Source: a virus (Duplodnaviria; Caudoviricetes). Taken from it: a stretch of 31,613 bases of DNA. Position numbers and translations under genes: made by a program. Each line of letters starts with the position of its first letter. The first letter of the stretch is position 1. Where the stretch lies: the IMG/VR virus record IMGVR_UViG_3300035135_001596, positions 1-31,613 of that record; one strand, written 5' to 3'. Below the pieces are notes generated by a model that did not search any database, was not told where the DNA came from, and worked only from the letters and a program-made list of their open reading frames with translations. Below are positions 1 to 31,613 of the stretch, piece after piece.

Positions 1-758
1 ATTGGTTTGAAGCACAAGACTCAAATATGCGTTTTGCTATTAATAGTAACTTAATTGCTAAAAAAGATATTGTAGACAAACTAATTGCTAAAACACAAGG
101 TATGAATCACTTTGAATTATACACAAGTTGCGAAGCAGTAGGCGCACAAGCAGAGTACATTCGTGATGGATTAGTTTATGAACAGTGGCTAACTAATATT
201 AAGCGTATTCTTACTGAAGCAAATACTAAAGGCGTACACATTATGATGACAATTAACAGTCTTTGCTTGTTTAGTATTACAGAATTCTTAGATGAAGTGT
301 ATAAACTAAAAGAACTTACCCAAAGTAGAACACCTACTGTCAGTTTAAATTTATTGCGTTTTCCAAGTTTTCAATCGCCACTAGCATTACCTAATCATAT
401 TAAAGATTATTGTCATGAAAAATTAAGCACTTGGTGGGAAGAAAATAAACACAAGCCGGGATGGCATGAGTTTGAACGTGCAAGTATTGAAAGATTAATT
501 GATTATCTGGTTACTGTAGATGCTCCACATAGGCGTACAAGTAATCCAGTTACACTTTGGCGAGATTTTAAAACATTTTATGCACAATATGATGTGCGTA
601 GAAACAAAAGCATTTATGTTTTTCCAAAAATCTTAACAGATTGGGTAGAAAGTATTCCAGATACAGATGCAAGCATTATGGAACTTGCCGATAAAGAAGG
701 TTGGATATTAAAACCTGATAATAAAAATATAGACGAACCGTTGGCAGCATATGACTAA
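1..758 (+). CDS. Radical SAM protein, C-terminal part (5'-truncated by the window edge)
   Basis: Frame is open from base 3 (WFEAQDSNMRFAINSNL). INSNL and YTSCEAVGAQAEYIRDGLVYEQW align with YNTNL and SIDGVGAVGEYIRTGLKWDEW of the next radical SAM. The CxxxCxxC motif would lie upstream of the window. Confidence 0.75.
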   Translation, partial: WFEAQDSNMRFAINSNLIAKKDIVDKLIAKTQGMNHFELYTSCEAVGAQAEYIRDGLVYEQWLTNIKRILTEANTKGVHIMMTINSLCLFSITEFLDEVYKLKELTQSRTPTVSLNLLRFPSFQSPLALPNHIKDYCHEKLSTWWEENKHKPGWHEFERASIERLIDYLVTVDAPHRRTSNPVTLWRDFKTFYAQYDVRRNKSIYVFPKILTDWVESIPDTDASIMELADKEGWILKPDNKNIDEPLAAYD

Positions 759-2061
759 AAAAGTTGGACCATATTTTTGTACAGCACCATGGACACATAC
801 ATACGTTAGCCCACAGGGAGAACGTAGGCTTTGTTGTGCAAGTAGAGAGGATGCCAGCTTTCAAAAGCAATACATAGACTCAGGAGACAAAAATAATGCA
901 GAATTTGCACCAGTGAGTCTAAAAGAACACTGGAACAGTGAATACATGAAAGATATTCGCAAGCGTATTCTTGCAGGAGAAAAGATTAGCCAGTGCGATG
1001 TGTGTAATAATCAAATATTAAACTTGCATACATATAAAAACTATTTTACAAATAACCTTTTCCCACACAAAGTAGATGAAATAATTGCTAGTACACGAGA
1101 AGATGGCTACACAACTATGCAACCTATTAGTTATGACTATCGTATTTCAAACTTATGCAATTTTAAATGTCGTATGTGCGGTGAGCAACTAAGTTCCAGT
1201 TGGGAAACAGAAAAGATTAAACACAATGTAGTCAACTACGAGCGTGAAAAATGGATGCAACCTGACACACGTAAGAAGATTGCAACGTTTCAAAAGGAAG
1301 TTCTTGAAACAGAACTACAAGCAGCAGTTGACAAAGGCATTGTAGAGGAGTTATACTGGGTAGGCGGTGAGCCTTTGATGTATGACATCCATTGGCGTAT
1401 TATGCAACAGCTAGTTGACGAAGGAAAAAGTCAAGATGTAGTTGTACGCTACAATACAAACTTGAGTAGAACGCACTACAAGGACTATAAACTGTATGAA
1501 ATGTTGGATAATTTCAAACGTGTCAACATTTGTGCCAGCATAGACGGTGTAGGTGCTGTCGGCGAGTACATTAGAACAGGACTCAAGTGGGACGAATGGT
1601 TACAAAACTTCAAAGACGGCATGTTCCTTATTGACAAGTACGGCAATGATGCAATGGTGTTTGATGTAACACTGACAACACCAGGACTTTTTGATTTACA
1701 ACGTATGTTTGATGTAGTTACAGAGCTAGATGTAAAAAGTTACTTTAAAATTACCTTTGCATTTGATCCTAGTGTGCTAATGAGTCCTATGTGTTTGCCA
1801 AGACACGTATTAGATGAACAAATACACAAACTACTAGACTATATCAAGCCAAGAGTAACACACAAAACTCGTGTGTATCAAGAAACACTTGAAAATATGC
1901 TTGAGCGTCCTACGTTTGAAGAAGAATACATTAACTATGCAGACGGTTGGCGTAGAGGTAAGAAGAATATATTGTTTGTTGAAAGTATTAGAACGCAAGA
2001 CGTTACGTTTAGAGACACGCTAAGTGACGCAGGCAAGGAATGGTGGGACAGCATTGAGTAA
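751..2061 (+). CDS. Radical SAM protein with N-terminal SPASM/twitch-like Cys domain
   Basis: CNFKCRMC, GGEP, YNTN and SIDG motifs. N-terminal FCTAPWTH...RLCC...HWNSEYMKDIR...CDVC. Confidence 0.9.
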   Translation: MTKKVGPYFCTAPWTHTYVSPQGERRLCCASREDASFQKQYIDSGDKNNAEFAPVSLKEHWNSEYMKDIRKRILAGEKISQCDVCNNQILNLHTYKNYFTNNLFPHKVDEIIASTREDGYTTMQPISYDYRISNLCNFKCRMCGEQLSSSWETEKIKHNVVNYEREKWMQPDTRKKIATFQKEVLETELQAAVDKGIVEELYWVGGEPLMYDIHWRIMQQLVDEGKSQDVVVRYNTNLSRTHYKDYKLYEMLDNFKRVNICASIDGVGAVGEYIRTGLKWDEWLQNFKDGMFLIDKYGNDAMVFDVTLTTPGLFDLQRMFDVVTELDVKSYFKITFAFDPSVLMSPMCLPRHVLDEQIHKLLDYIKPRVTHKTRVYQETLENMLERPTFEEEYINYADGWRRGKKNILFVESIRTQDVTFRDTLSDAGKEWWDSIE

Positions 2062-3232
2062 AACATTTTGCCCTTTACCGTGGACACACCTAGCAACACA
2101 CCCACATGGTAGTGTTACACTCTGTTGCGAAAGCGATATGACTAATCGTGCAAGCGAATCACAAAACTTGCCACGTGATTTTGTTACACTACATAACACA
2201 GAATATGACTTTGTAAAAATTATGAATTCCGACTTGTTTAAGCAAGTTCGCAAGGACATGTTGGAAGGTAAACAGCCAGCACCTTGTGCAAAGTGTTACA
2301 AACTAGAAGCACTAGGTAATGAAAGCAAACGTATAAGAGACAGCAACCTGTTGGATTTTAATGTACAAGATGCAAGATACATCACAGACGCAGACGGAAC
2401 ACTAACAGAAGTTAATTTTGAATTTATTGAACTGCGACTAGGCAACATATGCAACCTAGCATGTCGTTCGTGTAATCCGCAAAGCAGTAGTAAGTGGATA
2501 CGTGATTGGGAGAAACTAAACGAACGTAAATTTGACATGCCACAGAGCATGTTTGATTGGCCCTTAGATGAACGCTTTTGGGCAAGCCTAGCAGAACACT
2601 GTAATAACACCCGCAAAGTTTATATAAATGGCGGAGAACCTTTGCTTGTAGACAAGCATATGCGTTTCTTAGAGTTTTTAATTGCCAAAGACTTGGCTAA
2701 TAAAATTACACTAGTGTACAGTACAAACGCAACAATCATAAACGACAAATACATAGACTTATGGAAAGAGTTTGAGAAAGTTGAATTTATGGTAAGTATT
2801 GATTGTTTAGAAGAACGCAATACCTATTTACGGCATCCTGCAAAATGGGACAAAACAATCGAAGCATTTGATTGGCTACACAGTCTAGGACACAAGAGCT
2901 ATGTGCTACAAACCATAAGCATAATGAACATTTTCTATATCAAAGAGTTTTGGGAGTTTTTTAGAAGCAAAGGTGTATACGTTTCGCATAACATGGTACA
3001 TCATCCAAACTACTACAGTGCAGCAAATTCACCTCAACACGCCAAGCAGGCTGTGCTAGACAAAATTGTTGGTATGCCGTTCTATGACAATATAAATAAT
3101 TTTCTAAGTCAAGAAGCAAATACAGCAGCATTTGAACAGTTCTTAACAGAAAACAAACGTTTAGATGTTATACGCAATCAAAGTTACGAAAACATATTTA
3201 AAGAGTGGTATGATATATTGAAGGAACAATAG
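2054..3232 (+). CDS. Radical SAM protein with N-terminal SPASM/twitch-like Cys domain
   Basis: CNLACRSC, NGGEP, YSTN and SIDC motifs. N-terminal FCPLPWTH...LCC...CAKC. Start placed at TTG 2054, overlapping the upstream stop (ORF track gives 2024). Confidence 0.9.
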   Translation: MSKTFCPLPWTHLATHPHGSVTLCCESDMTNRASESQNLPRDFVTLHNTEYDFVKIMNSDLFKQVRKDMLEGKQPAPCAKCYKLEALGNESKRIRDSNLLDFNVQDARYITDADGTLTEVNFEFIELRLGNICNLACRSCNPQSSSKWIRDWEKLNERKFDMPQSMFDWPLDERFWASLAEHCNNTRKVYINGGEPLLVDKHMRFLEFLIAKDLANKITLVYSTNATIINDKYIDLWKEFEKVEFMVSIDCLEERNTYLRHPAKWDKTIEAFDWLHSLGHKSYVLQTISIMNIFYIKEFWEFFRSKGVYVSHNMVHHPNYYSAANSPQHAKQAVLDKIVGMPFYDNINNFLSQEANTAAFEQFLTENKRLDVIRNQSYENIFKEWYDILKEQ

Positions 3233-3233: not shown

Positions 3234-4118
3234 TTGGCACAAATTAGTTTGAAGACAGAAAGCACAGAAGTTGTAATTGATGTAGCTAATACAGAATTTA
3301 TGCAAACATGGCTAGATTATATGAACAGTCTTACTATGCCTAGTTTTAGTTGCAGCAGATGGTTTTATTATTGGAAGGAAATCAGTGATAAAGGAGTTCC
3401 TGCTTCTATTGATTTATTAGAAGATGCTCTTTTATATTGTTCTAAACATATTACAAATTATGACTGGTCAAATTCTCTACAGGCACTAGAAAATTTTAAA
3501 CAGGAACCTTCACAGTCACACATGAATATTATTCATAGAGATTTCACTTCACAAATACTACAAAAAAATATTGAAAAATATTTAGATAATGATTTATTAT
3601 CAGTAAAAGTACATAACATCAATGCCGCAGTTCATCAACTAGAGGTCTATAAAACTTGGAATTTGCTTCCTATAAGAGAAAAATTTCCAGGTAAAATTTT
3701 TGCTATTACATTCACTGATGCAAACAATATGGAAGGGGTAGATTTTTCTCCGTTCAAACACAAACTTACTAATTTATCGTTTGACCATAAAAAAGAAAAT
3801 ACAGACTATAATGTTTGGCTTAATGAAGATATACTAGGAAAAGATCTCATAAGGTGTTTTTTAGATGGCGATGACCCTAATAACTCTGATATAACTGGTA
3901 ACACATTTATGACACCTAATTTAATGATAGATGTCAAAAAAACGAATCATGAAATTTTACAGAGTCCTGAGTTTAATGAATGGCATGCGGCAGTTTGTCC
4001 TGATAAAAATCTTAATAGGTGGCCAGTTGGTAACATAGATTTAACATCTTATAATTTACCTGAAAAAGATTTTGAAGACGTATTAGAGTATAAAATATAT
4101 GATAAATTTGTACTATGA
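3234..4118 (+). CDS. Hypothetical protein, paralog of 15965..16774, with His/Glu motifs
   Basis: 294-aa ORF, TTG start, tightly packed. HRDF...NAAVHQLE...LGKDLIRCFLDGD...PVGNI pattern is shared with the minus-strand paralog. Confidence 0.75.
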   Translation: MAQISLKTESTEVVIDVANTEFMQTWLDYMNSLTMPSFSCSRWFYYWKEISDKGVPASIDLLEDALLYCSKHITNYDWSNSLQALENFKQEPSQSHMNIIHRDFTSQILQKNIEKYLDNDLLSVKVHNINAAVHQLEVYKTWNLLPIREKFPGKIFAITFTDANNMEGVDFSPFKHKLTNLSFDHKKENTDYNVWLNEDILGKDLIRCFLDGDDPNNSDITGNTFMTPNLMIDVKKTNHEILQSPEFNEWHAAVCPDKNLNRWPVGNIDLTSYNLPEKDFEDVLEYKIYDKFVL

Positions 4119-5418
4119 CAAAATATACAAAAAGAGCCTGCCTTTACCTAACGGAATTAGGACTGCTGGTAACTTTACCTCTATAGGATTACCGTATGCT
4201 AATGATGAGTATAGTTCTAGCCCTTTATTGAGACACACAGAATTTTTATCTGCAATGAAGGTATGTAAAGTAAAATATAATCTATATACAGGTTCAACGA
4301 CAACAAAAAATTTATTTTATCCTTTAGAACTTAATCAAACGTTCCAATTAATTAATAATTCACTTACAAAGTATATTAGTGAAAAAGTAAAAAATAAAAT
4401 ACAAAAAGGCAAATTTAAATTATTACTTATATGTAATAGATTAGGTAATAATAATTATTCTTACGGATTATTAAAAAAAAGGATAGATGAATTAGTAGAA
4501 TATGGTATATCAAAAAATAATATTTTTGTTCTAACTAGTGATGTAAATTGTTCATACAAAAAATTTTTAGATATTCCTAATATGTACGGAATAGATTGGT
4601 GGCAAATATATTCTCAATCAGTATATAAATCGAAAAGACAGGGATTAAAAAGTTATGAAAATTTATTTCCTTTAGATTATAACTTTAAGCCTTCGCCTTT
4701 TAAATATGAATTAGATTATGAAAAATGGAACCCTAGCAGATTATATACAGCATTAACGATGATGCAAAGACCATGGGACTACAGTTTAATTGTTGAAATA
4801 CTATACCAAAATATAGACAAACACGGAGATTGGTATTTTGATGAAACCTTATTCAAATTACCTGATCGTGTTGAAGATGTATTAGATATGAAAAATGGAT
4901 TAGCAGAAGTTTCTCAAAAGCAATATATTTTAGGAAAAAAACTTTCAAGCAAAAAAACACATAATAAAAAAATGCACGATAGTTTTTATTTAGATAGAAA
5001 TGACTTTTATGAAAGTTTGTTTAATATAGTTGTTAATGATTCATGTGTTACACAAAATAATCCATATATGGATAGCATCAATCTACTTTCGCCGGGAACA
5101 GGTATATGGAGACAAATAGCAGAAGGTCATCCGTTTATAGTTTTAGGTGACATGAATACAATGACATATTTAAATAAGGAAGGTTATTTCAGCTACCATG
5201 ATTTAGCATTTCAAAATTACGATAGTTATATAAGTGTACCTAAGAGAGTCAAGGCAATATGTAAAGAAATACATAATTTGACTAATAAGAACATTAACGT
5301 AATCAAAGATAGTGTAACTCCTATAGCAAATAAGAACAAAGAAAAATTCTTTGCAAAAGATAATGGTAGAAAGTTTTGGCAACTTTTTCTTGACATGAGG
5401 TACGAAAGTCCTGTATAA
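4099..5418 (+). CDS. Hypothetical protein, possibly GT-B/GT10-like glycosyltransferase-related (degenerate)
   Basis: 439-aa ORF. C-terminal GHPFIVLGDMNTMTYLNKEGYFSY resembles GHPFLLGANPTIFNYIKELGFKTF of 30331..31392, but it lacks the TEK motif. Confidence 0.6.
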   Translation: MINLYYDKIYKKSLPLPNGIRTAGNFTSIGLPYANDEYSSSPLLRHTEFLSAMKVCKVKYNLYTGSTTTKNLFYPLELNQTFQLINNSLTKYISEKVKNKIQKGKFKLLLICNRLGNNNYSYGLLKKRIDELVEYGISKNNIFVLTSDVNCSYKKFLDIPNMYGIDWWQIYSQSVYKSKRQGLKSYENLFPLDYNFKPSPFKYELDYEKWNPSRLYTALTMMQRPWDYSLIVEILYQNIDKHGDWYFDETLFKLPDRVEDVLDMKNGLAEVSQKQYILGKKLSSKKTHNKKMHDSFYLDRNDFYESLFNIVVNDSCVTQNNPYMDSINLLSPGTGIWRQIAEGHPFIVLGDMNTMTYLNKEGYFSYHDLAFQNYDSYISVPKRVKAICKEIHNLTNKNINVIKDSVTPIANKNKEKFFAKDNGRKFWQLFLDMRYESPV

Positions 5419-5424
5419 TTAGAT

Positions 5425-7359
5425 ATGTATGACATAATATTCATAAACAATAATACTGAAATGGCAGATAACTCTTGGGATTTTTTGAAACATAGATTTC
5501 CTAGAGCAAAAAGTGCAGTTTCTTTAGAAGATGCTCAGTCCAAAGCTATGACTAAAATGTTTTGGATAGTATGGCCAGACCTAATTGTTAATGATAATTT
5601 TAATTTTGATTATGAAGTTGACCAATGGAGTACAGAATATATCCATACTTTTTTGAATGGTGAACACTACGATGGAATAATACTAGTTCCTAAACGTGCA
5701 AAAATTAGTGCAAAAGAATGGCGTCACAGATTTTTTATAAACAAAAAAGAAACAGGAATACAGGCAAGCATACCGCAACCTTTTGATCTATTTTATATAG
5801 ATACATGGGAAGAATATGAGTCAGCTGTACAAAATAGCACAACAGAAATGTTTTGGATGGTATCAAATAACTTGTTTTACAATTCGACATACATAAACAA
5901 TTTTTATTTTAGTCATCACAATAGTTATGATAGAAAGGAAAATCATGCATTTGTACATGATGTTAATGGCAGGAGATTATACAATGGCGTATTCTTATGT
6001 TCAAAAAACAAACTCCTCAACAAAAAACAAATAGAATATAGATTTTTAGTTAATGCTAAACAATGGGACGATGTAGTTAGCGGTCCATGTAAATATGACT
6101 TATTTGTAGCAAATGATTACGATGATTACTTAGAAGCATTAAAAAAATGTAGGACAGAAATGTTTTGGTTAATACCTACACATGTTCATATGGATGATAC
6201 ATTTGAATATGATTATTATTTTAGCCATGATAATGAATATGACAGAAAAATTAATCATGTGTTTAAAAATGGTGAATATTATGATGGTGTAGTGCTATGT
6301 TCAAAATATGCAAAACTAGGAGAACGTGAGTTTAAGTATAAATTTGTAACGAATAAGAAAGAACATGATGTAGTAGTAAGTTCGCCTAGATCGTATGATA
6401 AGTTTGTTGTAAATTCATATGAAGATTATAAAAAATTAGGGCAAATGATTTCTACTGATTTTTATTTTGTTATCCCTAGTGATGTTAACGTAGAATGGGA
6501 TTTCAATTATCAAATACCTTATTATGAAAAGGACAATGTTCACATTTTTAGAAATGGAAAATACCACGACGGTATTTTCTTAATACACAAAGATAAAAAA
6601 TTATCACAACGTGAATTTGATTATAAATTCTTTGTAAACAAAAAAGAAATAAATAAAACGGCTTCGACGCCAAAACCATATGACATTGTTTTCATAAGTT
6701 ATAATGAACCAAATGCTGACGAAAACTATGCTAGGTTATTAAAAAGATATCCACAAGCTAAAAGGATACACGGCGTCAAAGGCATTCATCAAGCACATAT
6801 AGAAGCGGCAAAGTTATGCACAACAAATATGTTTTTTGTTGTTGACGGCGATGCACAAATTTTGGACGATTTTGATTTAGATTTTCAAGTTCCTAAATGG
6901 CAACGTGATCAAGTGTTTGTATGGCGTAGCCGTAATCCAATAAACAATTTGGAATACGGGTATGGAGGAATAAAATTGTTTCCTGTAAAAGAAACAATAA
7001 ACATGGATGTTACAAAAACTGACATGACTACAAGTATAAGTCCAAAGTTTAATGCTATGGATAGTGTAAGCAATATTACAGTATTCAATACAGATGCATT
7101 TTCAACTTGGAAAAGTGCTTTTAGAGAGTGTTGTAAATTATCATCAAAAACAATACGAGGACAAGTAGATAATGAAACAGAAGAAAGACTTAACACCTGG
7201 TGCGAGATGGGAGCGGATTCATTGTTTGGAGAATACGCTATTTCTGGGGCTCGCAATGGTCGTCAGTTCGGTCATGATAATCGCAATCTCCCAGATCGTC
7301 TAAATTTAATTAACAATTTTGATTGGCTAAAGGAGCAATTTAATGCAACCTGTGCCTGA
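5425..7359 (+). CDS. GT-A (GT2-like) glycosyltransferase-like protein with five tandem homologous units
   Basis: C-terminal unit YDIVFISYNEPNA...GIHQAHIEAAK...FFVVDGDA carries a DxD. Four degenerate upstream copies follow the pattern (Y/F)DxF...T(E/K)MFW...NG.YxDG(I/V)xL. Confidence 0.7.
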   Translation: MYDIIFINNNTEMADNSWDFLKHRFPRAKSAVSLEDAQSKAMTKMFWIVWPDLIVNDNFNFDYEVDQWSTEYIHTFLNGEHYDGIILVPKRAKISAKEWRHRFFINKKETGIQASIPQPFDLFYIDTWEEYESAVQNSTTEMFWMVSNNLFYNSTYINNFYFSHHNSYDRKENHAFVHDVNGRRLYNGVFLCSKNKLLNKKQIEYRFLVNAKQWDDVVSGPCKYDLFVANDYDDYLEALKKCRTEMFWLIPTHVHMDDTFEYDYYFSHDNEYDRKINHVFKNGEYYDGVVLCSKYAKLGEREFKYKFVTNKKEHDVVVSSPRSYDKFVVNSYEDYKKLGQMISTDFYFVIPSDVNVEWDFNYQIPYYEKDNVHIFRNGKYHDGIFLIHKDKKLSQREFDYKFFVNKKEINKTASTPKPYDIVFISYNEPNADENYARLLKRYPQAKRIHGVKGIHQAHIEAAKLCTTNMFFVVDGDAQILDDFDLDFQVPKWQRDQVFVWRSRNPINNLEYGYGGIKLFPVKETINMDVTKTDMTTSISPKFNAMDSVSNITVFNTDAFSTWKSAFRECCKLSSKTIRGQVDNETEERLNTWCEMGADSLFGEYAISGARNGRQFGHDNRNLPDRLNLINNFDWLKEQFNATCA

Positions 7360-9407: not shown

Positions 9408-9413
9408 ATAAAG

Positions 9414-23302: not shown

Positions 23303-23984
23303 ATATTTCTTTTGCCAATTCCATTACATCATCTCTAAAGTTTGTTTTAAAACTTTCGAATGCTAGTAACTGTATTTCTTTGTGTGCAGTGGGTTTATCA
23401 ATGTCAATTCCCATAGAAGCCATTTTAGGAAATAAGTCTGCTTGTCTATCTTCACTAATATGACTCATTACACTACGCAAACTTATATCATTATCAGCTT
23501 GATCATACGTAAAGAAATAATTTATACTTTTAAGTTTACCGTTTACAATAAAGTAACTTGACGGATGCAAACTGTATTTGGTTAATCCTAAGTCTTTGTG
23601 TGCTTGTAGTATTTCGAGCATCTGTTTATCCCAGTCAGGCAATACCTGTGAGTAGTCTGTTCCTACACAGCCGGCAAGTTCCCACATATCAGGTCCATCT
23701 ATTTCTAAATAAACTTTTCGTTCCTTTTCGTTGATACTAAACTTAGGAATATGTTCAGGATAGTGTGTTTTCATTATCCTTAAAAATTTAACCTCACGTT
23801 CAAATTTTTCATCCATCAACGACGGGTCAACAACTTGATTATGCCCACCGTGATAATTTTCGTCGTTGTAGTACCATTGACAAAAAAGTCCGTTTTTTGA
23901 AATTAAGCTAGTATAAATTAGATTATTTCTACATAACCCTTTGCCAGGAACGTTGTTGTAATAATATTCATAATTCCCGTTCAT
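23295..23984 (-). CDS. Protein-kinase-like fold protein with a degenerate catalytic loop
   Basis: FEREVKFL...HIPKF...KYSLHPSSYFIVNGKLKSINYF. Paralog of 19364..20035. Confidence 0.55.
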   Translation of the reverse strand: MNGNYEYYYNNVPGKGLCRNNLIYTSLISKNGLFCQWYYNDENYHGGHNQVVDPSLMDEKFEREVKFLRIMKTHYPEHIPKFSINEKERKVYLEIDGPDMWELAGCVGTDYSQVLPDWDKQMLEILQAHKDLGLTKYSLHPSSYFIVNGKLKSINYFFTYDQADNDISLRSVMSHISEDRQADLFPKMASMGIDIDKPTAHKEIQLLAFESFKTNFRDDVMELAKEIYA

Positions 23985-23989: not shown

Positions 23990-24006
23990 TACTTATCTGG
24001 TAAGTA
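23990..24006. promoter_or_regulatory. Back-to-back promoter boxes, perfect inverted repeat TACTTA-N5-TAAGTA
   Basis: TACTTA at 23990-23995 and TAAGTA at 24001-24006. Each is 5 nt from an ATG (23984 on -, 24012 on +). Confidence 0.68.
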
Positions 24007-24011: not shown

Positions 24012-24821
24012 ATGATTAGAGGAATTGGTGGCAAACCATACATTAACTTAGATCCTTATTTAGACATAAAGGGTTTTAGGAATCTGCATCCAGAAATTTG
24101 CAAAGGTTTTGCATTAGCAAGAGATTATGCAAAAGAAGGAACGTGGATGGCTCCTGGCTTTGACTGGAAGGACGCTTCTTATATTTTAAATTGGAAACCG
24201 ATTTATCAAGCGTGGGATGACTATCAGTCATTGCCAGACGACCACCCTATTAAGGTAGAAGGCAATAAAATATTACCAACAGACTTTGGCGACTATAGGC
24301 AACGAAACATTTTTACAAGATATTTAAAAACAACTATGGGTGCAAATGACCCATACATATATTATTTTTTATGGAATGAAGGAGATTGGAATGAAAGGAA
24401 CGCTGAACGTCAAAAAACTGAAGAAGCGGTTTACTTTCCGGGTATCGTTAAGTGGGTTGAAAGCCTCCAAGAAGAAGGTATCATTAGCCAAATCGGAAGG
24501 GTAATATTTTTTCACTGTGATCACAACGGTAAAGCATTTGAACATAGAGATTTAGATGCAAATAATGGAGTACATGATGATAAGCAATATAGTCCGCACA
24601 ATAATGAATTTATACATATACGCTATCGTACAAAAAGAGGATTTTATATTTGGGATCCCGAAAGCGAAAATAAACATTATATAAATTGTAATGCTGCATT
24701 TTGGAATGATCAAGACTGGCACGGCGGAGAAAGTAGTGCTGAAGTAGAATACGGCTTACGTGTTGATTGCAAATTTACTCCAGAATTCCGCAAAGTCATA
24801 GGCGTTACCGGAAGCTATTAA
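24012..24821 (+). CDS. Putative 2OG-Fe(II)/cupin oxygenase
   Basis: GRVIFF...FEHRD (HxD)...DWHGG...LRVD pattern. Confidence 0.65.
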   Translation: MIRGIGGKPYINLDPYLDIKGFRNLHPEICKGFALARDYAKEGTWMAPGFDWKDASYILNWKPIYQAWDDYQSLPDDHPIKVEGNKILPTDFGDYRQRNIFTRYLKTTMGANDPYIYYFLWNEGDWNERNAERQKTEEAVYFPGIVKWVESLQEEGIISQIGRVIFFHCDHNGKAFEHRDLDANNGVHDDKQYSPHNNEFIHIRYRTKRGFYIWDPESENKHYINCNAAFWNDQDWHGGESSAEVEYGLRVDCKFTPEFRKVIGVTGSY

Positions 24822-25312
24822 TGAAATTACTTGGTAATTTTAATTTTATCCAAGACACTTGGATAGACGAAGTTCTTAATAAAGAAGGACAAGCCCGGCC
24901 CCGAGATTGGCCAGCGATAAATGCTATTGAAAGTGCTGAATATTCTCGTGCAGAAGAAGCAGGATATGATTTAAATGCTATACATTGGTGGGTATATGAA
25001 AAACAAGATGTAAGTTTTGATTTTGTTCCAACTTTTGTTAAAGGTAATTATCATTGGTGGATAACTAAACTATATCCCGGGCAATTTATGCCTGTACATA
25101 CTGATCCGCATACACACAGTCAATCGTGTAAGCGTTATTGGTGTCCATTACAAGATTATCATCCAGGACATATTTTTTTGTATAAAGATACTGTTCCTGT
25201 TAACTATAAGAAGGGTGATGTTTTTGTATACGAAAACGAGCAAGATATCCACGGAGCAGCAAACATAGGACATATTCCTAGACTAGTATTACAAGTTACG
25301 GAGTATATTTAA
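24821..25312 (+). CDS. 2OG-Fe(II) dioxygenase/cupin
   Basis: PGQFMPVHTD, IHGAANIG and PRLVLQV. TAATG overlap supports start 24821. Related to the 20028 and 20600 proteins (AGY, W, GHIF). Confidence 0.8.
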   Translation: MKLLGNFNFIQDTWIDEVLNKEGQARPRDWPAINAIESAEYSRAEEAGYDLNAIHWWVYEKQDVSFDFVPTFVKGNYHWWITKLYPGQFMPVHTDPHTHSQSCKRYWCPLQDYHPGHIFLYKDTVPVNYKKGDVFVYENEQDIHGAANIGHIPRLVLQVTEYI

Positions 25313-25342: not shown

Positions 25343-25894
25343 ATGAAATTTATTTTCACACTTTTTATTTTATTAGCAACAGCAACAGCAGCACAAGCAG
25401 ATAGTATTAATTTTCAATTAGGCGATCAAACAAACAGCAACGGCACGAGTAGTAATGTCTATACTATCAAATACATTCATGACGTAAATAAAAATTTAGA
25501 TGTTGGCGTTATGATTAACAACTCTAGAAATACATCTACAGAAGGAGTAGTATCTTTATATGAAATCTCTACAAGATATAAAATTCCAGTTGTTAACAAG
25601 ACTGCTATTTATATTGGACCGACTTTAGGATCATTGCAACCATCTGGAGTAGACAGTAGAAATTATGTAGGTTTAGAATTCGGAGCCATGACAAAAATTA
25701 CTGATAGAATAGGTTTAAGAGCAGATTATACTAAAATGACAGGAATAAATGTAGATACTATGGATAATACTTATTCCAGAATTTGGGCATCATACGATCT
25801 TACTAAGAAGAACACTATCGGCATTCGTAGAGATTTTATGAGAGGCGATTTAGAATTTGATACTTGGAGTTTAATGTTTCAGCATAGATTTTAG
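25343..25894 (+). CDS. Outer-membrane beta-barrel protein with Sec signal peptide
   Basis: MKFIFTLFILLATATAAQA signal peptide (AQA cleavage site), alternating amphipathic strands, C-terminal LMFQHRF ending in Phe. GGAG Shine-Dalgarno upstream. Confidence 0.75.
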   Translation: MKFIFTLFILLATATAAQADSINFQLGDQTNSNGTSSNVYTIKYIHDVNKNLDVGVMINNSRNTSTEGVVSLYEISTRYKIPVVNKTAIYIGPTLGSLQPSGVDSRNYVGLEFGAMTKITDRIGLRADYTKMTGINVDTMDNTYSRIWASYDLTKKNTIGIRRDFMRGDLEFDTWSLMFQHRF

Positions 25895-25901: not shown

Positions 25902-26876
25902 TTAGTTTCTGCTATTTTTATGTATCTTTAACACATTGATTTCATTCTTTTCAACACCCATGTATTCACCAGGGCACATGCTACATTCATCTACACTGCA
26001 ATAATGTGTGTTAGCGAAATGTTCAATCTCTTTATCTGTACAAGTTTCTAAATTTACAGGTTTATATTTTAGATACTTTTGCCACTCGGCATCTTGTAAT
26101 AAGTCATATTTTTCTAAAAGCCTTCTTAATGTACCTAATGCTCCACACTTGTAAATTTTCTTGTCGTGTAAAAAAGCACAAAATTGACTTGGGCAACTAT
26201 TCTTGTAAGCATCTGCCGGATTACTATTAAACGGCTTTGGTATTCCATTCACTTTATTTACAATAGTTTGAAAGTATGGAGACTCCATATAATGAATCCC
26301 CCAATTTCCTTCCATGTATGTAATATCATTTGGATCACGGCCTTCAAAGTCGTCTATCCACCCTTTTTCTTTTAGATACTTCTTCCAATTATCTGTTCCG
26401 GTATCTGCTTTAAATACATCATACCACCAAAGATGAGCTGGAATTGTTTCTTTGATGCCTAAACGTTGACCAATTGTGTGTACAGCATTCACCATAGTAT
26501 CTTTGGAATAGAACAGCGGTGTGTGATTACAAACTTGAACCCAGATATGATATTCGTTTACAAGATCAACAACCCAGTCAATATTTTTATGTAACAACAT
26601 TCCGTTCGTAGACATAAAGATAGTTTTGTTTGGTTCAAAGCTACGTATACACTTTATAATTTCTAATATCTTGTCTTTGTATAAAAATGGTTCGCCACCT
26701 ATCATACTCCAGTTTTCAACATCAAACTTTTTGTTAGCTAGTATTAAACTTTCTCGAATTGATTCAATACTAGGACCGTCAAAATCTAACTCGTCGCTTC
26801 TACTATCACAATTAGAACATGCTAGATTACACTTATTGCCATAAAATGCATCAAGTAATTTAATGTGTCTGTTCAT
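25902..26876 (-). CDS. Radical SAM protein with C-terminal Cys-rich domain
   Basis: CNLACSNC, IGGEP and STNG motifs. C-terminal CPSQFC...YKC...CSMCP. ATG 26876 preferred (ORF track gives 26900). Confidence 0.88.
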   Translation of the reverse strand: MNRHIKLLDAFYGNKCNLACSNCDSRSDELDFDGPSIESIRESLILANKKFDVENWSMIGGEPFLYKDKILEIIKCIRSFEPNKTIFMSTNGMLLHKNIDWVVDLVNEYHIWVQVCNHTPLFYSKDTMVNAVHTIGQRLGIKETIPAHLWWYDVFKADTGTDNWKKYLKEKGWIDDFEGRDPNDITYMEGNWGIHYMESPYFQTIVNKVNGIPKPFNSNPADAYKNSCPSQFCAFLHDKKIYKCGALGTLRRLLEKYDLLQDAEWQKYLKYKPVNLETCTDKEIEHFANTHYCSVDECSMCPGEYMGVEKNEINVLKIHKNSRN

Positions 26877-27525
26877 TTTGTTTCCTATAACTTCTTGCAA
26901 TCAATTCTATAAATTCCTTTTTACGTTTGCCTGGAATACCGTGTGCAATTAAATGTATTCTAGATATATTTGAGTTATTAACAAAACTGTGTACATTGCG
27001 TATATTAATAATAAATGCTTTGCCTTCTTTGAAAGGTACAGTTCCGTGTCCTTCTAAAGTCATATAACAATCATCTGGATGTATGATTGCTATATTTATA
27101 GGAACGCCAAACTCTAGCATGTCTAAATTATCTTCTCCTGGTAAGCGTCCAGGAGCATCACTATGCGGGTTTATTCTGCCACCAGATTCAAGTTGCATGA
27201 AACGAATTCTTCTATAACTCTCGTAAGGAAATTGCTCCCAAAAACTTTTTATATTAGGAGTGTGTTCGCTTATACTAGTCCATTTGTAAGGGACTTCATT
27301 TTCGTTTTTCCAATCGCCGTAATTTGTCCATGCACCTGTTTTATCAACATCAATACCATGTATACAACTACTGTTCCAGCCTGGATGCTCTTTACCTCTA
27401 TGATCTACAAATAGTGCCGCATCAGTTTCACGCTTCCATGCATCTAAGTCAAACTCAATATCTAGTTCTAGCCAACCCGTACTCGGATCATTTAACACTT
27501 TGTTTGCAATATCATAATCGTTCAT
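26860..27525 (-). CDS. 2OG-Fe(II) dioxygenase, Asp/Asn beta-hydroxylase-like
   Basis: RIRFMQLESGGRINPHSD, VHSFVN and SRIHLI. ATG 27525 lies 5 nt after ATAAGTA (ORF track gives 27540). Confidence 0.85.
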   Translation of the reverse strand: MNDYDIANKVLNDPSTGWLELDIEFDLDAWKRETDAALFVDHRGKEHPGWNSSCIHGIDVDKTGAWTNYGDWKNENEVPYKWTSISEHTPNIKSFWEQFPYESYRRIRFMQLESGGRINPHSDAPGRLPGEDNLDMLEFGVPINIAIIHPDDCYMTLEGHGTVPFKEGKAFIINIRNVHSFVNNSNISRIHLIAHGIPGKRKKEFIELIARSYRKQNEQTH

Positions 27526-27530
27526 ATTTG

Positions 27531-27560
27531 TACTTATCATATAAACTGCGTGTATAAATA
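27531..27560. promoter_or_regulatory. Divergent promoter boxes: ATAAGTA (-) and exact T4 late consensus TATAAATA (+)
   Basis: TACTTAT at 27531-27537 and TATAAATA at 27553-27560. Each is 5 nt from an ATG (27525 on -, 27566 on +). Confidence 0.7.
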
Positions 27561-27565: not shown

Positions 27566-29032
27566 ATGAATACAATTGATAGAGATTTTATTAGTAGTAA
27601 TTTTTCTGCTGTAAATCTTGTTGACGGATACTGTCAAGAACGTGTTAATTTTAATAAGGCAGATTTAGTTGAAAAGATTAATTTGTGGAAATATATTCTA
27701 GTACATAGGTGTAAAGCAAAACCACAAGAGTCAATTCTTATAGGTAGTCATACACTTAACATTGATTATATTGCTTCAATATATGCCGCGGCTGAACTTT
27801 CATTAATAATTACAGTTGTTGATTATATTAGAACAGACGACTTTCGTGATTCAAAGTATAAAGATCCAAAAACACAAGCACTTCTGCCAATACATATATT
27901 CTTACATGATTTCCCAAAAGATTTAGCTGAAAAGGATCCAGAAGCATTTTCAAAGTATATATACTTTCAAGAAATATCTGAAAGAACTTATAGCATTGTT
28001 GACGATGATATTAATTTTAAAATAGATAATCAATTTGACTACAGTCAAGCTATAAGTATTATGCCTAAGCCTGATGATATTCTAGTGAAGGCTACTAGTA
28101 GTGGAACTACTAACAAGCCTAAAATAATTGAACATACCCATGCATTCATTCGAGGAGTTGCTGAACGTAACATGTGGATGTTTGGCGGTACAGCTCTACA
28201 TGTAAAAAATCTTAACCATGGCGCTTCTGCTGCGGTAACATTATTTCCTGTTTTAGCAAATGATGATGTTAAACAACATGTAATTTATGCAATAAATGAA
28301 GACGACCCGTTAGAACATTTTGTTAAAAGTATAGAAGAATTTAGAGAAGATCTATGCACAGTGTCTTTTCCATATCCGTTCTTTATAGAAAGATTTATTG
28401 CATCCAGTAGGAAATTTAATCTAAATTGGCCTAACTTACGTGTCTTAGTTCTTACATACACCCTAGAAAGCATAAAACTTGCAGCTCGTGATGGTATTAT
28501 AAAGAATGTAACTAGTTTATTTGGGTCTAATGAAACATTAGGACCACTTTTTATTAATGTTTTTGATAAAGAAAACTGGGACAAAGATTCTCGATTATAT
28601 ACAAAATTCGATGACTGGTATAACTTAGAACTTTCAGAAGAAGGAAAGCTCATTGTAGAGTTACCTGTATATAATAGATTAGAAACAATGAATGATGTAT
28701 TTAAAATGGAGGATGGGTTTTGGGTACATCAAGGAAGATCAGATTTATTAAGGATCAATGGTGAAGACATTGAGATATCAAAAATTGACGACCTTAATAA
28801 ACAAAACGAAGACTTTTATGTTATAGTAGATACAATAAATCATTGTCTATATATAGCGTATTGGGTAGTCAAAACACAACAAGAAGTTGATGACTATATA
28901 AGCAAAGTAGAGTCTAATTTTAAGCAAATTGAAGTTAAACATGCAATGCAACTAAAAAAAGAAAATTATTACTATGGTTTTAAAATTGACAACGAACTAT
29001 TAAGAGAATATTTTAGACATCATATCTATTAG
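27566..29032 (+). CDS. Adenylate-forming enzyme (ANL superfamily, acyl-CoA/phenylacetate-CoA ligase-like)
   Basis: ATSSGTTNKPK P-loop, FGSNETLGP, ND and GRSDLLRINGE hinge motifs. Confidence 0.8.
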   Translation: MNTIDRDFISSNFSAVNLVDGYCQERVNFNKADLVEKINLWKYILVHRCKAKPQESILIGSHTLNIDYIASIYAAAELSLIITVVDYIRTDDFRDSKYKDPKTQALLPIHIFLHDFPKDLAEKDPEAFSKYIYFQEISERTYSIVDDDINFKIDNQFDYSQAISIMPKPDDILVKATSSGTTNKPKIIEHTHAFIRGVAERNMWMFGGTALHVKNLNHGASAAVTLFPVLANDDVKQHVIYAINEDDPLEHFVKSIEEFREDLCTVSFPYPFFIERFIASSRKFNLNWPNLRVLVLTYTLESIKLAARDGIIKNVTSLFGSNETLGPLFINVFDKENWDKDSRLYTKFDDWYNLELSEEGKLIVELPVYNRLETMNDVFKMEDGFWVHQGRSDLLRINGEDIEISKIDDLNKQNEDFYVIVDTINHCLYIAYWVVKTQQEVDDYISKVESNFKQIEVKHAMQLKKENYYYGFKIDNELLREYFRHHIY

Positions 29033-29041: not shown

Positions 29042-29479
29042 ATGATCAAAGAAACACACGCAAGAACTATCGCAAAAGCAGTAATTTATAGAGCATTAGC
29101 TGTATTAGCTATTATGTTAATTTCAGTTTATATTATGGGAGCAACTTGGACAGAAGCAAGTCAAGTTGGTGCTATAGTTATTATTTTAGGAACAACAATT
29201 TATTATATTCATGAAAGAGCATGGCTGTTTACTACTTGGCTTCGACTAGGAGACGGTAAGGATAGACATTATCGTAGTCTAATTAAAACACTTATTTACA
29301 GAGGACTTACAATGATAGCTGCATTTATTGTTGCTACTTTTGTTCTTAAAGCATCAACAGGAGGTGCAACTAGTTTTGCTTTAATGCAGGCCGCGTCTAA
29401 TATGACCTTATTTTATATTGTTGAAAGAATATTTAATATGACTAATTGGGGAATAATGATTGACAACACCGCCGAATGA
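29042..29479 (+). CDS. Membrane protein with a duplicated DUF2061-like domain
   Basis: ETHARTIAKAVIYR...YYIHERAW is repeated as DRHYRSLIKTLIYR...FYIVERIF. Four hydrophobic segments. AGGAG Shine-Dalgarno upstream. Confidence 0.75.
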   Translation: MIKETHARTIAKAVIYRALAVLAIMLISVYIMGATWTEASQVGAIVIILGTTIYYIHERAWLFTTWLRLGDGKDRHYRSLIKTLIYRGLTMIAAFIVATFVLKASTGGATSFALMQAASNMTLFYIVERIFNMTNWGIMIDNTAE

Positions 29480-30341
29480 TAAGCGTTTGTTGCCATATGG
29501 CGGTGCCTTTGCTATACAAGATACAGAGATTATAGATTTTATAAAATCTGTAGACCTTGTTAATTCTTTGTGGGAAGAAGATATAACCCAACAATTTTGC
29601 AAAGAATATAAAAATTGGATTTCTACAACACAAATTAATAGTGTTAAATGTTTAGAAAAGTTTGAATATAGCGTTTATTCAAACGGAACTAGTCAAGCAT
29701 TTGACATGTTTTATATCAAAAACAAAGACAGACGCTTTAGATGCTGTAAAGGTGAGTATATGTATCATCAACTGGCATGGCGTAATAACTGGCCAAACTG
29801 GAAGTTTCTAGACGACGGCATTATTAAAGAAGGTGATGCAGTAGTAATTAGCTTGCCATTTTCCAATACAGGTAACAATCCTGATAATTTAAAAGTTCTA
29901 CTTAATCAATGTGACGAACTTAAGGTTCCTGTTTTACTTGATTGTGCTTATTTTGGTATTTGTGCAAATATAGATTTTGATTTTACACACGATTGTATTA
30001 CAGATATTGTGTTTAGTTTAAGTAAAACATTTCCAGTAGCACATGCTCGCATTGGTATGAGATTGACAAAAGTAGACGACGATGACTTAATGTTTGTATA
30101 TGATAAGATAAATTATAATAATCGTATAAGTGCTAAGTTGGGTTTAGAACTAATTCGCAAATATCCCCCAGACTACATATACAAAAAATACCAAGCCCAG
30201 CAAGAAGCAATGTGTAAAGACTTAAACATAAAGCAATCTAATACAGTTATGTTTGGATTAGACTTTAATAACTTATATCCTGAATATAATAGAGGATGCA
30301 ATGTTAATAGATTAGGGTTACATAAACATTATGCCGTCTAA
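29460..30341 (+). CDS. PLP-dependent enzyme (fold type I, aminotransferase class I/II-like)
   Basis: NGTSQAF, PFSNTG, LLDCAY (DxAY) and FSLSKTFPVAHARIG (PLP Lys and Arg). Start uncertain (TTG). Confidence 0.8.
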   Translation: MTTPPNDKRLLPYGGAFAIQDTEIIDFIKSVDLVNSLWEEDITQQFCKEYKNWISTTQINSVKCLEKFEYSVYSNGTSQAFDMFYIKNKDRRFRCCKGEYMYHQLAWRNNWPNWKFLDDGIIKEGDAVVISLPFSNTGNNPDNLKVLLNQCDELKVPVLLDCAYFGICANIDFDFTHDCITDIVFSLSKTFPVAHARIGMRLTKVDDDDLMFVYDKINYNNRISAKLGLELIRKYPPDYIYKKYQAQQEAMCKDLNIKQSNTVMFGLDFNNLYPEYNRGCNVNRLGLHKHYAV

Positions 30342-31392
30342 GATTATTAATTTTGAATATTTTCCTGCCATTGAAAGTGATACTTACAAACGTATTATAA
30401 CTGATATAGAAACAGCAGCAAATGAAGGATACACTTCTATTATAGGCTTATTGCTTGTAGATGGATTTCTATACAAGCACAACGATAAATGGAACCAACT
30501 ATACAACAAGATTGTATCCTATGCAAAAAATATTAATGTTAGTATTACAATAGTATCTGGAATGAGTCATGATAATGCAGTAAATTGCAAAACAATTCCG
30601 TTTGATTTTTATATGCATACAGTCTGGAATAGTTATAAAGATAAAGAATTAAGTAATTACAATCCTAATACTAACAAGTTTTTATTCTTAGGAGGAGTTC
30701 CGGATAGACTTAATAGAATAGGTTTATTATACAAATTATACAATGAAGGTTTGTTAGAAAATGCAGAATGGAGTTTCTTTCCACCTTGGACACAAAAGCA
30801 AAAAGAAAACTCATTAAAATATTTTCCTTCTACTAAAGAATATTATAATTTTATACAGTTTGCAGAACGCAAAGTAGATGACTTGTATGAATCTTCTAAA
30901 ACATACTGCACAAATGAAATTCCTATAGCAACAGAATGGACTAATAATAGTGCTTGGATTGATCCTAGTCTATATAGTCAAACTAGTCTAAGTGTAATAG
31001 CAGAAGGTCATCCAGGAGATAATAATAACAATAGTAAGTTCTTAACTGAAAAGATATTTAGAGTTTTTGTCCAAGGGCATCCGTTTTTATTAGGTGCAAA
31101 TCCTACAATTTTTAATTATATTAAAGAATTAGGATTTAAAACATTTGAAGAATATTTCCCTATTACAGACTATGCTGTAGATACCTCTGAAGATGTACGT
31201 CTAGAAAAACTAGTTACAAATTTACATTATTTTGTAAATAACGGTATAGATTGTGCTGAAGATATAGAGTATAACAAGAAACATTTTTTTAAACTAGCAA
31301 AAGAAAACGCAAATATACTAAACATATTAGATGCTAGTAAAGAAGAAATAAATTTTTTCTTTGACAGAAAAGGCTTTGGACATTTGATATGA
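30331..31392 (+). CDS. Hypothetical protein, GT-B/GT10-like glycosyltransferase-related
   Basis: KFLFLGG...R, LSVIAE...FLTEKIFRVFVQGHPF...GFKTF. The E...TEK arrangement resembles the GT10 nucleotide-sugar-binding motif. Confidence 0.6.
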   Translation: MPSKIINFEYFPAIESDTYKRIITDIETAANEGYTSIIGLLLVDGFLYKHNDKWNQLYNKIVSYAKNINVSITIVSGMSHDNAVNCKTIPFDFYMHTVWNSYKDKELSNYNPNTNKFLFLGGVPDRLNRIGLLYKLYNEGLLENAEWSFFPPWTQKQKENSLKYFPSTKEYYNFIQFAERKVDDLYESSKTYCTNEIPIATEWTNNSAWIDPSLYSQTSLSVIAEGHPGDNNNNSKFLTEKIFRVFVQGHPFLLGANPTIFNYIKELGFKTFEEYFPITDYAVDTSEDVRLEKLVTNLHYFVNNGIDCAEDIEYNKKHFFKLAKENANILNILDASKEEINFFFDRKGFGHLI

Positions 31393-31613
31393 TTATTAAG
31401 TCAAACAACGATTGGGATCCTTTAAAAGAAATAATTGTAGGTAGAGCAGATCGTGCTCGTATACCAACAGTTGACGCTAGTACTATGAGCATGAGCTATG
31501 CTAATTACAATATAGAAGATATAAAAGAGCTGGAGGGAGAATATCCACAGTGGCTTATAGACGAAGCAAACGAAGATGCAGAAGAGTTGTGTAGCGTATT
31601 GCGTAATGCAGGT
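31389..31613 (+). CDS. Amidinotransferase (glycine/inosamine-phosphate amidinotransferase family), N-terminus, 3'-truncated
   Basis: Not in the ORF track. Translates as MIIKSNNDWDPLKEIIVGRADRARIP...EANEDAEELCSVLRNAG, matching the family N-terminal SxxEWDPLxEVIVG. ATGA overlap with the upstream stop. Confidence 0.8.
   Translation, partial: MIIKSNNDWDPLKEIIVGRADRARIPTVDASTMSMSYANYNIEDIKELEGEYPQWLIDEANEDAEELCSVLRNAG

Follow-up and report, generated by a model that had tools for sequence, protein, structure and literature searches.

A widespread radical SAM-rich tailoring island of T4-like jumbo phages

Introduction

Phage genome islands rich in radical S-adenosylmethionine (SAM) enzymes have been noted since 2010, and their product has never been named. 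As far as the available portions of the publications describe them, the closest systems are the following. The Campylobacter phages CP220 and CPt10 carry an interchangeable module of five radical SAM genes and an amidinotransferase gene, with 11–12 radical SAM genes per genome (PMC2853527), and the marine T4-like phage TARA_ERS488813_N000010 has 12 radical SAM genes, which were read as part of iron-sulfur (Fe-S) metabolism (Nishimura et al., 2017; PMC5332604). In pelagimyophages and cyanomyophages, a host recognition cluster between vrlC and the neck gene gp14 holds tail fibers, glycosyltransferases, sugar enzymes, and radical SAM cassettes that are gained and lost (Zaragoza-Solas et al., 2020; PMC7029224). 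The cyanophage S-SCSM2R encodes a pyridoxal phosphate (PLP)-dependent enzyme of the AHBA (3-amino-5-hydroxybenzoic acid) type, a radical SAM enzyme, and an inosamine amidinotransferase (PMC12801897), and virion glycosylation is described for mycobacteriophages (Freeman et al., 2023, cited through PMC12619734). The subject of this study is a stretch of 31,613 bases, the virus record IMGVR_UViG_3300035135_001596 of IMG/VR (hereafter the window; GC content 26–39%), which is filled with genes for modifying enzymes, radical SAM enzymes foremost.

A preliminary description of the window had proposed an undescribed hypermodification pathway, given the number of paralogs assembled in one place. The window corresponds to the variable inner part of an island of jumbo phages, and this island is real, large, and widespread. 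Its kind is already known: phage clusters of 11–12 radical SAM genes together with amidinotransferases or glycosyltransferases have been published. The island type is thus in print, and what is not yet described is the chemistry and the target of the island.

Genomic Setting and Relatives

The 37 open reading frames (ORFs) of the window (g01–g37, Table 1) cover 99.6% of its length, and the longest intergenic gap is 30 nt. A RiPP precursor, for a peptide made on the ribosome and modified after translation, was ruled out, since no longer gap able to hold one exists. A tRNA search of the window found none. Scans of the window proteins against Pfam, PHROGs, and NCBIfam gave no match to structural, housekeeping, or nonribosomal peptide/polyketide synthase genes. 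The preliminary description had stated this absence along with a nearly contiguous run of modifying enzymes, and both statements hold, the exceptions to pure tailoring content being the stand-alone adenylation-like g33 and the membrane proteins g30 and g34. A membrane segment or signal is absent in 35 of the 37 proteins, and general library scans of the window proteins matched no flippase, polymerase, exporter, or scaffold gene. Pairwise dN/dS ranged from 0.04 to 0.23 in 31 genes, each compared with an orthologue of more than 50% identity; of the remainder, three were saturated and three had distant homologues only. Judged by sequence, the window genes are intact and under purifying selection.

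Scans of viral contigs returned 101 stretches for g06, 220 for g17, and 192 for g28, of which the best 80 per query, not dereplicated, were kept. Co-occurrence was counted where an orthologue of at least 40% identity lay within at most 10 kb. Among the best 80 g17 loci, g15 was found in 80, g12 in 78, g18 in 70, g11 and g19 in 68 each, g08 in 54, and g28 in 49; among the best 80 g28 loci, the counts were 78 for g27, 72 for g17, 66 for g18, 65 for g19, and 59 for g26. The island genes therefore recur in many viral contigs with their order mostly kept, which answers the synteny check suggested in the preliminary description.

The phage origin claimed there is confirmed by the virus record itself and by a Gp23-type capsid gene in 8 of 10 related records, the two misses being fragments of 38 and 44 kb. 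Relatives also encode portal and baseplate genes. In T4-like jumbo relatives of ~350 kb, the island measures 33–44 kb and lies between tail-fiber genes and an Mtd_N fiber gene. In relative G006 (357,559 bp, rated complete) it spans 162.9–196.3 kb, beginning 94 nt past the baseplate/fiber block and ending at the Mtd_N fiber gene; the CxxxCxxC motif occurs in 13 of 36 island ORFs, whereas none of the remaining 96 ORFs within the 140 kb analyzed has it. The closest large relative, G009 (94, 95, 87, and 90% identical in g01, g02, g03, and g28, respectively), has an island of 43 kb with the same borders and a Gp23 capsid gene. As described earlier, the island exceeds both edges of the window: G009 has about seven extra genes on the left, and on the right its island continues for only a few genes more. 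Beyond the Mtd_N fiber gene, non-structural ORFs follow in both genomes.

The G006 capsid protein is 65–70% identical to those of Phosso, Vibrio 2.275.O, PA5oct/MIJ3, and CBB/GAP32, which are jumbo phages of 285–470 kb. Assignment to the Moraphages was weighed but dropped, since the available part of their description (PMC12619734) offered no link. Outside its island, G006 has a separate locus (205,082–214,533; L261) with QueE/FolE genes at 205–207 kb and unnamed neighbors, a possible DNA-modification locus. A 519-aa gene near QueE/FolE is common to PA5oct-like phages, Phosso, and Vibrio 2.275.O; it matched only hypothetical proteins, and a provisional label as DpdA-like transglycosylase was dropped. 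The same genome, with its 13 island radical SAM genes, has a NifU/IscU Fe-S scaffold gene (233,647–234,042; L262).

The Transferase Core

In relatives, five genes lie 5' of g01: a 115-aa gene, two genes for transferase-like proteins of ~280 aa, a gene of ~190 aa, and a 300-aa paralogue of g06. Together with g06 they form a six-gene core, of which four members are transferase-like; for the two ~280-aa proteins, which gave no Pfam or NCBIfam match, this label was assigned by eye. In 41 of 80 g06 loci, no CxxxCxxC protein was found in the available flanking DNA (at least 15 kb in 18 of these), which makes the tailoring enzymes optional. In two loci (L049 and L057), the six core genes stand straight after the fibers and unrelated genes come next. 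The tailoring genes are thus insertions within and behind a core that is itself fixed.

Of 50,697 GenBank phage records, the soil phage RsoM2USA alone matched the g06 domain and the core's first gene. Its core, accompanied by an N_Twi_rSAM-like gene and a g11-like gene, follows genes for sheath, tube, and a fiber-like protein. The order of the core behind fiber genes is thus kept in relatives with and without tailoring genes and in RsoM2USA. The available part of the RsoM2USA paper reports ten virion bands, none from core-region ORFs, and contains no glycan analysis (PMC8504454). Downstream of the core, this phage has a long run of paralogue-like ORFs of ~200 aa (L088, 27,400–41,300), many with the same first residues and unrelated to window proteins. 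In another lineage (L028–L032), g06-type domains are fused in a 1,180-aa protein ahead of neck/sheath-like genes, with no radical SAM genes nearby.

The C-terminal domain of g06, modeled with a predicted local distance difference test (pLDDT) score of 91, is predicted to have a GT-A/nucleotidyltransferase fold. Its best structural match was B4GALNT1 (Z 10.8, root-mean-square deviation (rmsd) 2.6 over 131 residues), in a tie with MobA-type proteins, and its DxD motif was conserved in 69 of 69 sequences. In the N-terminal 420 aa (5425–6690), the beginning of the protein's own transferase domain is repeated about four times in degenerate form, and relatives occur in forms of 225, 520, 640, and >1,000 aa. 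For g36, the model (pLDDT 90) predicts a GT-B fold: T4 BGT matched with Z 10.7 (rmsd 4.7 over 247 residues), tied with AGT, PimB', and PimA (all Z 10.6), and WbnH was also among the tied structures. The g36 family comprises 10,725 representatives at E ≤ 0.001. Sequence searches of the PDB with the g36 family and the g06 domain were blank or uninformative.

Of 75 cellular loci found with the g06 alignment, 28 belong to Bdellovibrionota by title. In these bacteria, g06 pairs and homologues of g12, g07, g08, g11, the QueC-like gene, and g35 stand among GT2 glycosyltransferase genes, and the loci also lie near the housekeeping genes dnaB, rplI, and pheST (59 of 124 neighboring ORFs at 10 loci were scanned). 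This bacterial gene context, together with the GT-A and GT-B folds, supports the glycan pathway that the preliminary description had proposed.

Tailoring Enzymes

The window encodes ten radical SAM proteins, five of them N_Twi_rSAM, seven oxygenase-like proteins with an HxD...H motif, proteins of GT-A and GT-B fold, sugar-nucleotide enzymes, and a StrB1-like amidinotransferase. The ten radical SAM genes counted earlier were all recovered: nine passed the PF04055 cut-off, and the tenth, g01, truncated at the left edge, was identified in its full form of 482 aa, taken from a contig that is 100% identical over g01–g08 (L001), with an NF033640 score of 303.5. The curated cut-off of this model is a whole-protein score of 170, by which g01 (full), g02, g03, g12, and g17 are N_Twi_rSAM members. 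The sugar enzymes are represented by g09, g10, and the predicted folds of g06 and g36, in agreement with the earlier account.

In g02, g03, g12, and g17, a PF13186 twitch domain was found at residues 10–103, ahead of PF04055 and CxxxCxxC; Pfam gave no PF13186 match for g07, g08, g13, g15, and g31. In enzymes of the BtrN/NeoN type, which oxidize or epimerize sugars or aminocyclitols, the twitch domain is C-terminal to the radical SAM core. The earlier comparison with these enzymes is therefore loose: a twitch domain is present in five genes, but its N-terminal placement, as in NF033640, gives a different domain order. The five N_Twi_rSAM paralogues are 26–29% identical to one another, whereas orthologues of four of them are 85–95% identical, which points to old, separately maintained paralogues. 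The likeness to NF033640 is one of family, and the peculiarity here is that five old paralogues are kept side by side. A literature search, with most subscription papers and supplements outside it, returned no paper naming N_Twi_rSAM or NF033640 and none joining radical SAM enzymes, jumbo phages, glycosyltransferases, and oxygenases.

Genes g04 and g16 belong to one unnamed family, in which N, H, E, G, K, and D residues are invariant and which always lies within radical SAM runs; one copy was seen in a Bdellovibrionaceae locus (L333). This family could be a radical SAM partner. A search of the ESM Atlas with g16 gave nothing usable (best 0.76).

The HxD...H triad was kept in 26 of 27 homologues of g21, 43/44 of g22, 20/20 of g23, 77/78 of g28, 48/48 of g29, and 31/32 of g32; for g19, where a narrow pattern was used, it was found in 23/44. 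Of the seven 2-oxoglutarate (2OG) oxygenases listed in the preliminary description, only g23 and g32 pass Pfam cut-offs, g19 lies below, and g21, g22, g28, and g29 have the motif only. The 2OG dependence of g19, g21, g22, g28, and g29 is predicted at most. A profile of g21, g22, and g29 weakly matched a beta-hydroxylase (E 0.19).

Two families with a kinase fold, g20 and g27, are conserved pseudokinases under purifying selection. The position of the catalytic Asp is occupied by Ser in 72 of 73 g27 homologues and by Thr, Ala, Ser, or Asn in 44 of 46 g20 homologues. In 78 of 80 g28 loci, g27 stands beside g28, mostly as a divergent pair.

The motifs of g18 were conserved in 73/76 and 76/76 homologues. 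Its PF06508 (QueC) score was 11.3 bits, below the cut-off of 22, which 12 of 14 control genomes passed, and relatives showed up to four weak matches each; with a score below cut-off and several copies in relatives, a role as QueC of the deazaguanine pathway was rejected. The catalytic Cys motif of g09 was found in 9 of 11 orthologues, and the GGWxG motif of g11 in 54 of 56. The putative assignments of g11 as methyltransferase and g24 as short-chain dehydrogenase/reductase (SDR) are motif-based, library scans having given no match, and g26, for which Pfam and NCBIfam scans were blank, is presumably GNAT-like. PDB sequence searches with g11, g18, and g35 were blank or uninformative. An orthologue of g37 (83% identical, in L081) matched StrB1 (1BWD) with E 8e-88, compared with 4e-56 for glycine amidinotransferase. 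The catalytic Cys motif was present in all 27 full-length amidinotransferases, and the PLP enzyme g35 accompanied them in 25 of 27 amidinotransferase loci.

Table 1. Genes and promoter-type sites of the window. N_Twi_rSAM genes are given with NF033640 scores in bits.
Feature	Position	Strand	Assignment and basis
g01	3..758	+	C-terminal half of N_Twi_rSAM; 116.5 as fragment
g02	751..2061	+	N_Twi_rSAM; 318.7; PF04055 and N-terminal PF13186
g03	2024..3232	+	N_Twi_rSAM; 340.4
g04	3234..4118	+	Unnamed family, distant kin of g16 (alignment); no library match
g05	4099..5418	+	g36 family; BLAST g05–g36 E 4e-4; putative GT-B fold, from g36
Sigma70-type promoter	5390..5419	+	TTGACA, 18 nt, TATAAT; end 5 nt 5' of g06 ATG
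g06	5425..7359	+	Core transferase; degenerate N-terminal repeats and predicted C-terminal GT-A/nucleotidyltransferase-fold domain with DxD
g07	7343..8404	+	Radical SAM; PF04055
g08	8373..9356	+	Radical SAM; PF04055
g09	9360..10154	+	Short UDP-sugar dehydrogenase; PF00984 and PF03721, no C-terminal domain match
g10	10136..11008	+	NAD-dependent epimerase/dehydratase; PF01370 E 6e-27
g11	11005..11613	+	Methyltransferase-like by glycine-rich motif; no library match
g12	11594..12988	+	N_Twi_rSAM; 392.4; Bdellovibrionota homologues 44–46%
g13	12985..13998	+	Radical SAM; PF04055
g14	13975..15072	-	Unassigned; N-terminal part like GT2 models; ESM Atlas TM 0.57 by row, 0.40 by query (lead only)
g15	15069..15977	-	Radical SAM; PF04055
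g16	15965..16801	-	Unnamed family with g04
g17	16767..18080	-	N_Twi_rSAM; 333.3; most conserved gene, 77–90% in best 80 loci
g18	18022..18702	-	QueC-like PP-loop protein, Zn-type Cys motif; phrog_1550 E 6e-7
TAARTA divergent pair g18/g19	18708..18724	both	Each 5 nt 5' of ATG (g19 ATG 18730)
g19	18715..19386	+	Weak AspH-like oxygenase; PF05118 below cut-off
g20	19364..20035	+	Kinase-fold, without catalytic Asp
g21	19977..20603	+	HxD...H oxygenase-like
g22	20552..21133	+	HxD...H oxygenase-like
g23	21143..21739	+	2OG-Fe(II) oxygenase; PF13640 over cut-off
g24	21736..22179	+	Minimal SDR-like; YxxxK in 14/14; no library match
g25	22172..22771	+	Minimal SDR; weak PF00106 and NCBIfam SDR matches
g26	22745..23302	-	No library match
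g27	23295..23984	-	Kinase-fold, without catalytic Asp; profile E 7e-6 to TTK kinase
TAARTA divergent pair g27/g28	23990..24006	both	Each 5 nt 5' of ATG
g28	24012..24821	+	Highly conserved HxD...H oxygenase-like; invariant H178, D180, H237, R250
g29	24767..25312	+	HxD...H oxygenase-like
g30	25343..25894	+	Outer-membrane beta-barrel-like, hydrophobic N-terminus; PF13505 below cut-off; 3/80 g28 loci
g31	25902..26900	-	Radical SAM; PF04055
g32	26860..27540	-	AspH-like oxygenase; PF05118 over cut-off; likely start 27525
TAARTA divergent pair g32/g33	27531..27560	both	Each 5 nt 5' of ATG
g33	27566..29032	+	Stand-alone AMP-binding, adenylation-like; PF00501 E 1e-5, below cut-off; P-loop in 9/10
g34	29042..29479	+	Tandem DUF2061 membrane protein; PF09834; 3/80 g28 loci
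g35	29460..30341	+	PLP-dependent aminotransferase-like; PF00155 E 0.0012, slightly under cut-off
g36	30331..31392	+	Predicted GT-B fold; very large unnamed family
g37	31389..31613	+	First 75 aa of amidinotransferase

Promoters and Expression

The T4 late box TATAAATA was not enriched in the window (7 observed, 8.06 expected). At three divergent junctions, TAARTA occurs on both strands, exactly 5 nt 5' of the ATG. The motif was picked after seeing the sequence, and its conservation in orthologues served as an independent test. It was found upstream of distinct orthologue segments of g18 (57/69), g19 (25/25), g27 (35/67), and g28 (45/71), and less often for g32 (12/30) and g33 (3/10), compared with 0/83, 1/76, and 0/47 for the controls g17, g15, and g26. 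In G006, TAARTA precedes baseplate and fiber genes. From these structural genes and the T4 consensus, we infer that TAARTA is a late promoter.

Five of the seven long orthologues of g06 also have a sigma70 site of this kind, 6 nt 5' of the ATG. For the first core gene, 15 of 35 upstream segments contained a sigma70-type site with at most one mismatch and 26 of 35 one with at most two, after two slicing artifacts had been dropped. RsoM2USA has TAARTA, not a sigma70 site, before this gene. On sequence grounds, g01–g13 are probably early or host-driven and g14–g37 late. The late-type promoters of the preliminary description thus hold for g14–g37 only, through TAARTA at the three junctions and not the T4 late box; g06 is preceded by a perfect match to the sigma70 consensus. 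Each of the six TAARTA sites, like the -10 box of g06 (within 5414–5424), ends exactly 5 nt before the ATG. As this spacing leaves no room for a ribosome-binding site, leaderless or near-leaderless transcripts are predicted.

Target of the Island

Tentatively, we favor the reading that the conserved core builds a glycan on virion fibers or other virion proteins, which is diversified by radical, oxidative, and amidino chemistry. The four glycosyltransferase-like core proteins would assemble an oligosaccharide on an acceptor that the phage itself makes, with the neighboring tail fibers or other virion proteins as the most probable candidates. Nucleoside diphosphate sugars would be provided, oxidized, and epimerized by g09, g10, g24, and g25; g35 would aminate and g37 subsequently amidinate, introducing guanidino groups. 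Amide or acyl formation may be due to g18, g33, and g26, methylation to g11, and C–H chemistry to the ten radical SAM enzymes and seven oxygenase-like proteins. Sigma70 promoters would give early synthesis of the transferases, TAARTA would give late synthesis of much of the tailoring machinery, and the varied glycan coat might alter host binding or shield the virion.

The virion as target is a guarded preference, to which the fixed position beside the fibers, the conserved core, and the 35 of 37 soluble proteins without an export system point. The reading also draws on the predicted GT-A and GT-B folds, the Bdellovibrionota homologues among GT2 genes, the TAARTA sites of the G006 baseplate and fiber genes, and the pairing of amidinotransferase and PLP enzyme. 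Conservation of the core across different hosts would be easier to reconcile with an acceptor that the phage encodes than with one specific to a host. The virion glycans of mycobacteriophages, as far as described in the available source, are a precedent (PMC12619734).

Several points weigh against this reading. Glycan, acceptor, and reactions are all predicted from sequence and models; the fold of g06 ties with nucleotidyltransferases, and the best fold matches of g36 include T4 DNA glucosyltransferases. The bacterial homologues stand in what look like cell-surface glycan loci. TAARTA in G006 also precedes some non-structural genes, while the sigma70 sites at the first core gene and g06 suggest early expression, with which a host-surface or DNA target fits at least as well. 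A candidate assignment of two small core genes as fiber-assembly proteins, based on resemblance, went unsupported, as 28 sequences gave no consistent Pfam match.

It is conceivable, but rather doubtful, that modification of the host surface is the purpose of the island. At the inner membrane, soluble transferases would then act on lipid-linked precursors of the host's O-antigen or core, host transporters would export the altered glycan, and superinfection would be blocked. This is the reading given for pelagimyophage and cyanophage islands in the available parts of two papers (PMC7029224; PMC7824862). It agrees with the sigma70 sites that precede the core and g06, the bacterial homologues among GT2 genes, the tie of g36 with PimA, PimB', and WbnH, and the membrane genes g30 and g34. 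However, each of these two genes was found in only three of 80 loci, most tailoring genes lie behind TAARTA sites common to structural genes, and the same ordered core occurs across habitats and presumably hosts, including RsoM2USA.

Hypermodification of DNA, in which the transferases would glycosylate a modified base and the tailoring enzymes elaborate the sugar, is unlikely. T4 BGT and AGT are among the top fold matches of g36, although tied with non-DNA enzymes, the core has early-type promoters, and DNA would be a phage-encoded acceptor such as the conserved core suggests. In known phage DNA glyco-hypermodification, a TET/JBP dioxygenase or a hydroxymethylase supplies the acceptor base. 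No window oxygenase matched Tet_JBP or another DNA-modification family in Pfam, PHROGs, or NCBIfam, and PF12851 (Tet_JBP) was found in 0 of 5 large relatives, a scan in which no positive control responded and which did not cover hydroxymethylases. Furthermore, the QueE/FolE locus of G006 is separate from the island, which is tied to fiber genes and not to replication genes.

Still less probable is a free aminocyclitol or amino-sugar small molecule (antibiotic, signal, or defense inhibitor), for which the transferases would only join units. The closest PDB match of g37 is StrB1 and not glycine amidinotransferase, the amidinotransferase is linked to a PLP enzyme beside SDRs and an adenylation enzyme, and similar readings were given for cyanophage clusters in the available parts of the sources (PMC12801897; PMC7824862). 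On the other hand, neither a scaffold gene nor an exporter was matched in library scans, the catalytic Asp is missing from the kinase-like genes, and the tailoring content shuffles while the transferase core stays. Shuffling gene content around a constant core fits combinatorial decoration more readily than a single fixed product.

A cellular chromosomal cluster, for instance of Bdellovibrionota, which the preliminary description had named as one refuting case, can be dismissed with near certainty: several core genes do have chromosomal homologues there, but these are 27–50% identical, compared with 70–98% and a common order for the phage orthologues, relatives encode Gp23, portal, and baseplate genes (G009 with Gp23, G006 with jumbo-phage capsid kinship), and no cellular locus examined held homologues of g20/g27 or g28. 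Seven hits in bacterial metagenome-assembled genomes (L268, L317, L342, L270, L320, L326, and L337) show the phage-type island order and low GC; they are probably mis-binned jumbo-phage contigs.

Returning to the virion glycan, a wider and speculative picture, possible though improbable as a whole, is that of a widespread ~350-kb aquatic phage clade that places a fixed four-transferase glycan on its fibers and edits it with strain-specific cassettes of radical SAM enzymes, oxygenases, pseudokinases, and an amidinotransferase, making guanidinylated, radical-edited sugars, a hypervariable glycocalyx that predatory Bdellovibrionota either lent to the phages or have in common with them. If true, the island would be a rich source of radical chemistry on carbohydrates that is new. 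If the virion is the target, a heavily edited phage glycocalyx would shape which hosts these abundant aquatic phages infect and how they persist. With the core-plus-optional layout, the question comes down to six conserved genes, and the enzymes to be assayed first can be named. Whatever the target, the five N_Twi_rSAM paralogues, the GT-B family of >10,000 clusters, and the two pseudokinase families are uncharacterized enzyme space.

Comparison with Known Systems

To the published record the window adds the split into core and optional genes and two promoter classes with apparently leaderless starts; it also yields predicted folds for two unnamed families of transferases and reveals conserved pseudokinases. 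The streptidine branch of streptomycin biosynthesis employs StsC and a kinase step. The island resembles it in the StrB1-like amidinotransferase with its Cys motif and the linked PLP enzyme. It differs in that g35 was not matched to the StsC-type family (only weakly to PF00155, with no PDB match), the kinase-like genes lack the catalytic Asp, and no cyclitol synthase was matched.

The published phage systems are compared here as described in the available parts of their sources. CP220 and CPt10 share the pairing of radical SAM enzymes with an amidinotransferase, whereas no transferase core or oxygenase array is mentioned there, and CP220-type records gave no match to g12 or the g06 domain in GenBank phage searches. 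TARA_ERS488813_N000010 likewise has about a dozen radical SAM genes in a T4-like aquatic phage and Fe-S assembly genes (NifU/IscU in G006), but no link to glycosyltransferases or fibers is made in its description. Mycobacteriophage virion glycosylation also relies on phage-encoded soluble glycosyltransferases near structural genes; the radical SAM and oxygenase set is far larger here, and the glycan of the present system is a predicted one.

The host recognition cluster of pelagimyophages and cyanomyophages is likewise a large variable island in the structural region, with tail fibers, glycosyltransferases, and radical SAM cassettes. Here, an ordered six-gene core, a dominance of radical SAM genes, and unnamed transferase families are found, whereas mainly GT8 enzymes are described there. 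The lineage differs as well, the G006 capsid being nearest to jumbo phages of the Phosso/PA5oct/GAP32 type. The island thus works like a host recognition cluster, but by lineage it does not belong to that group.

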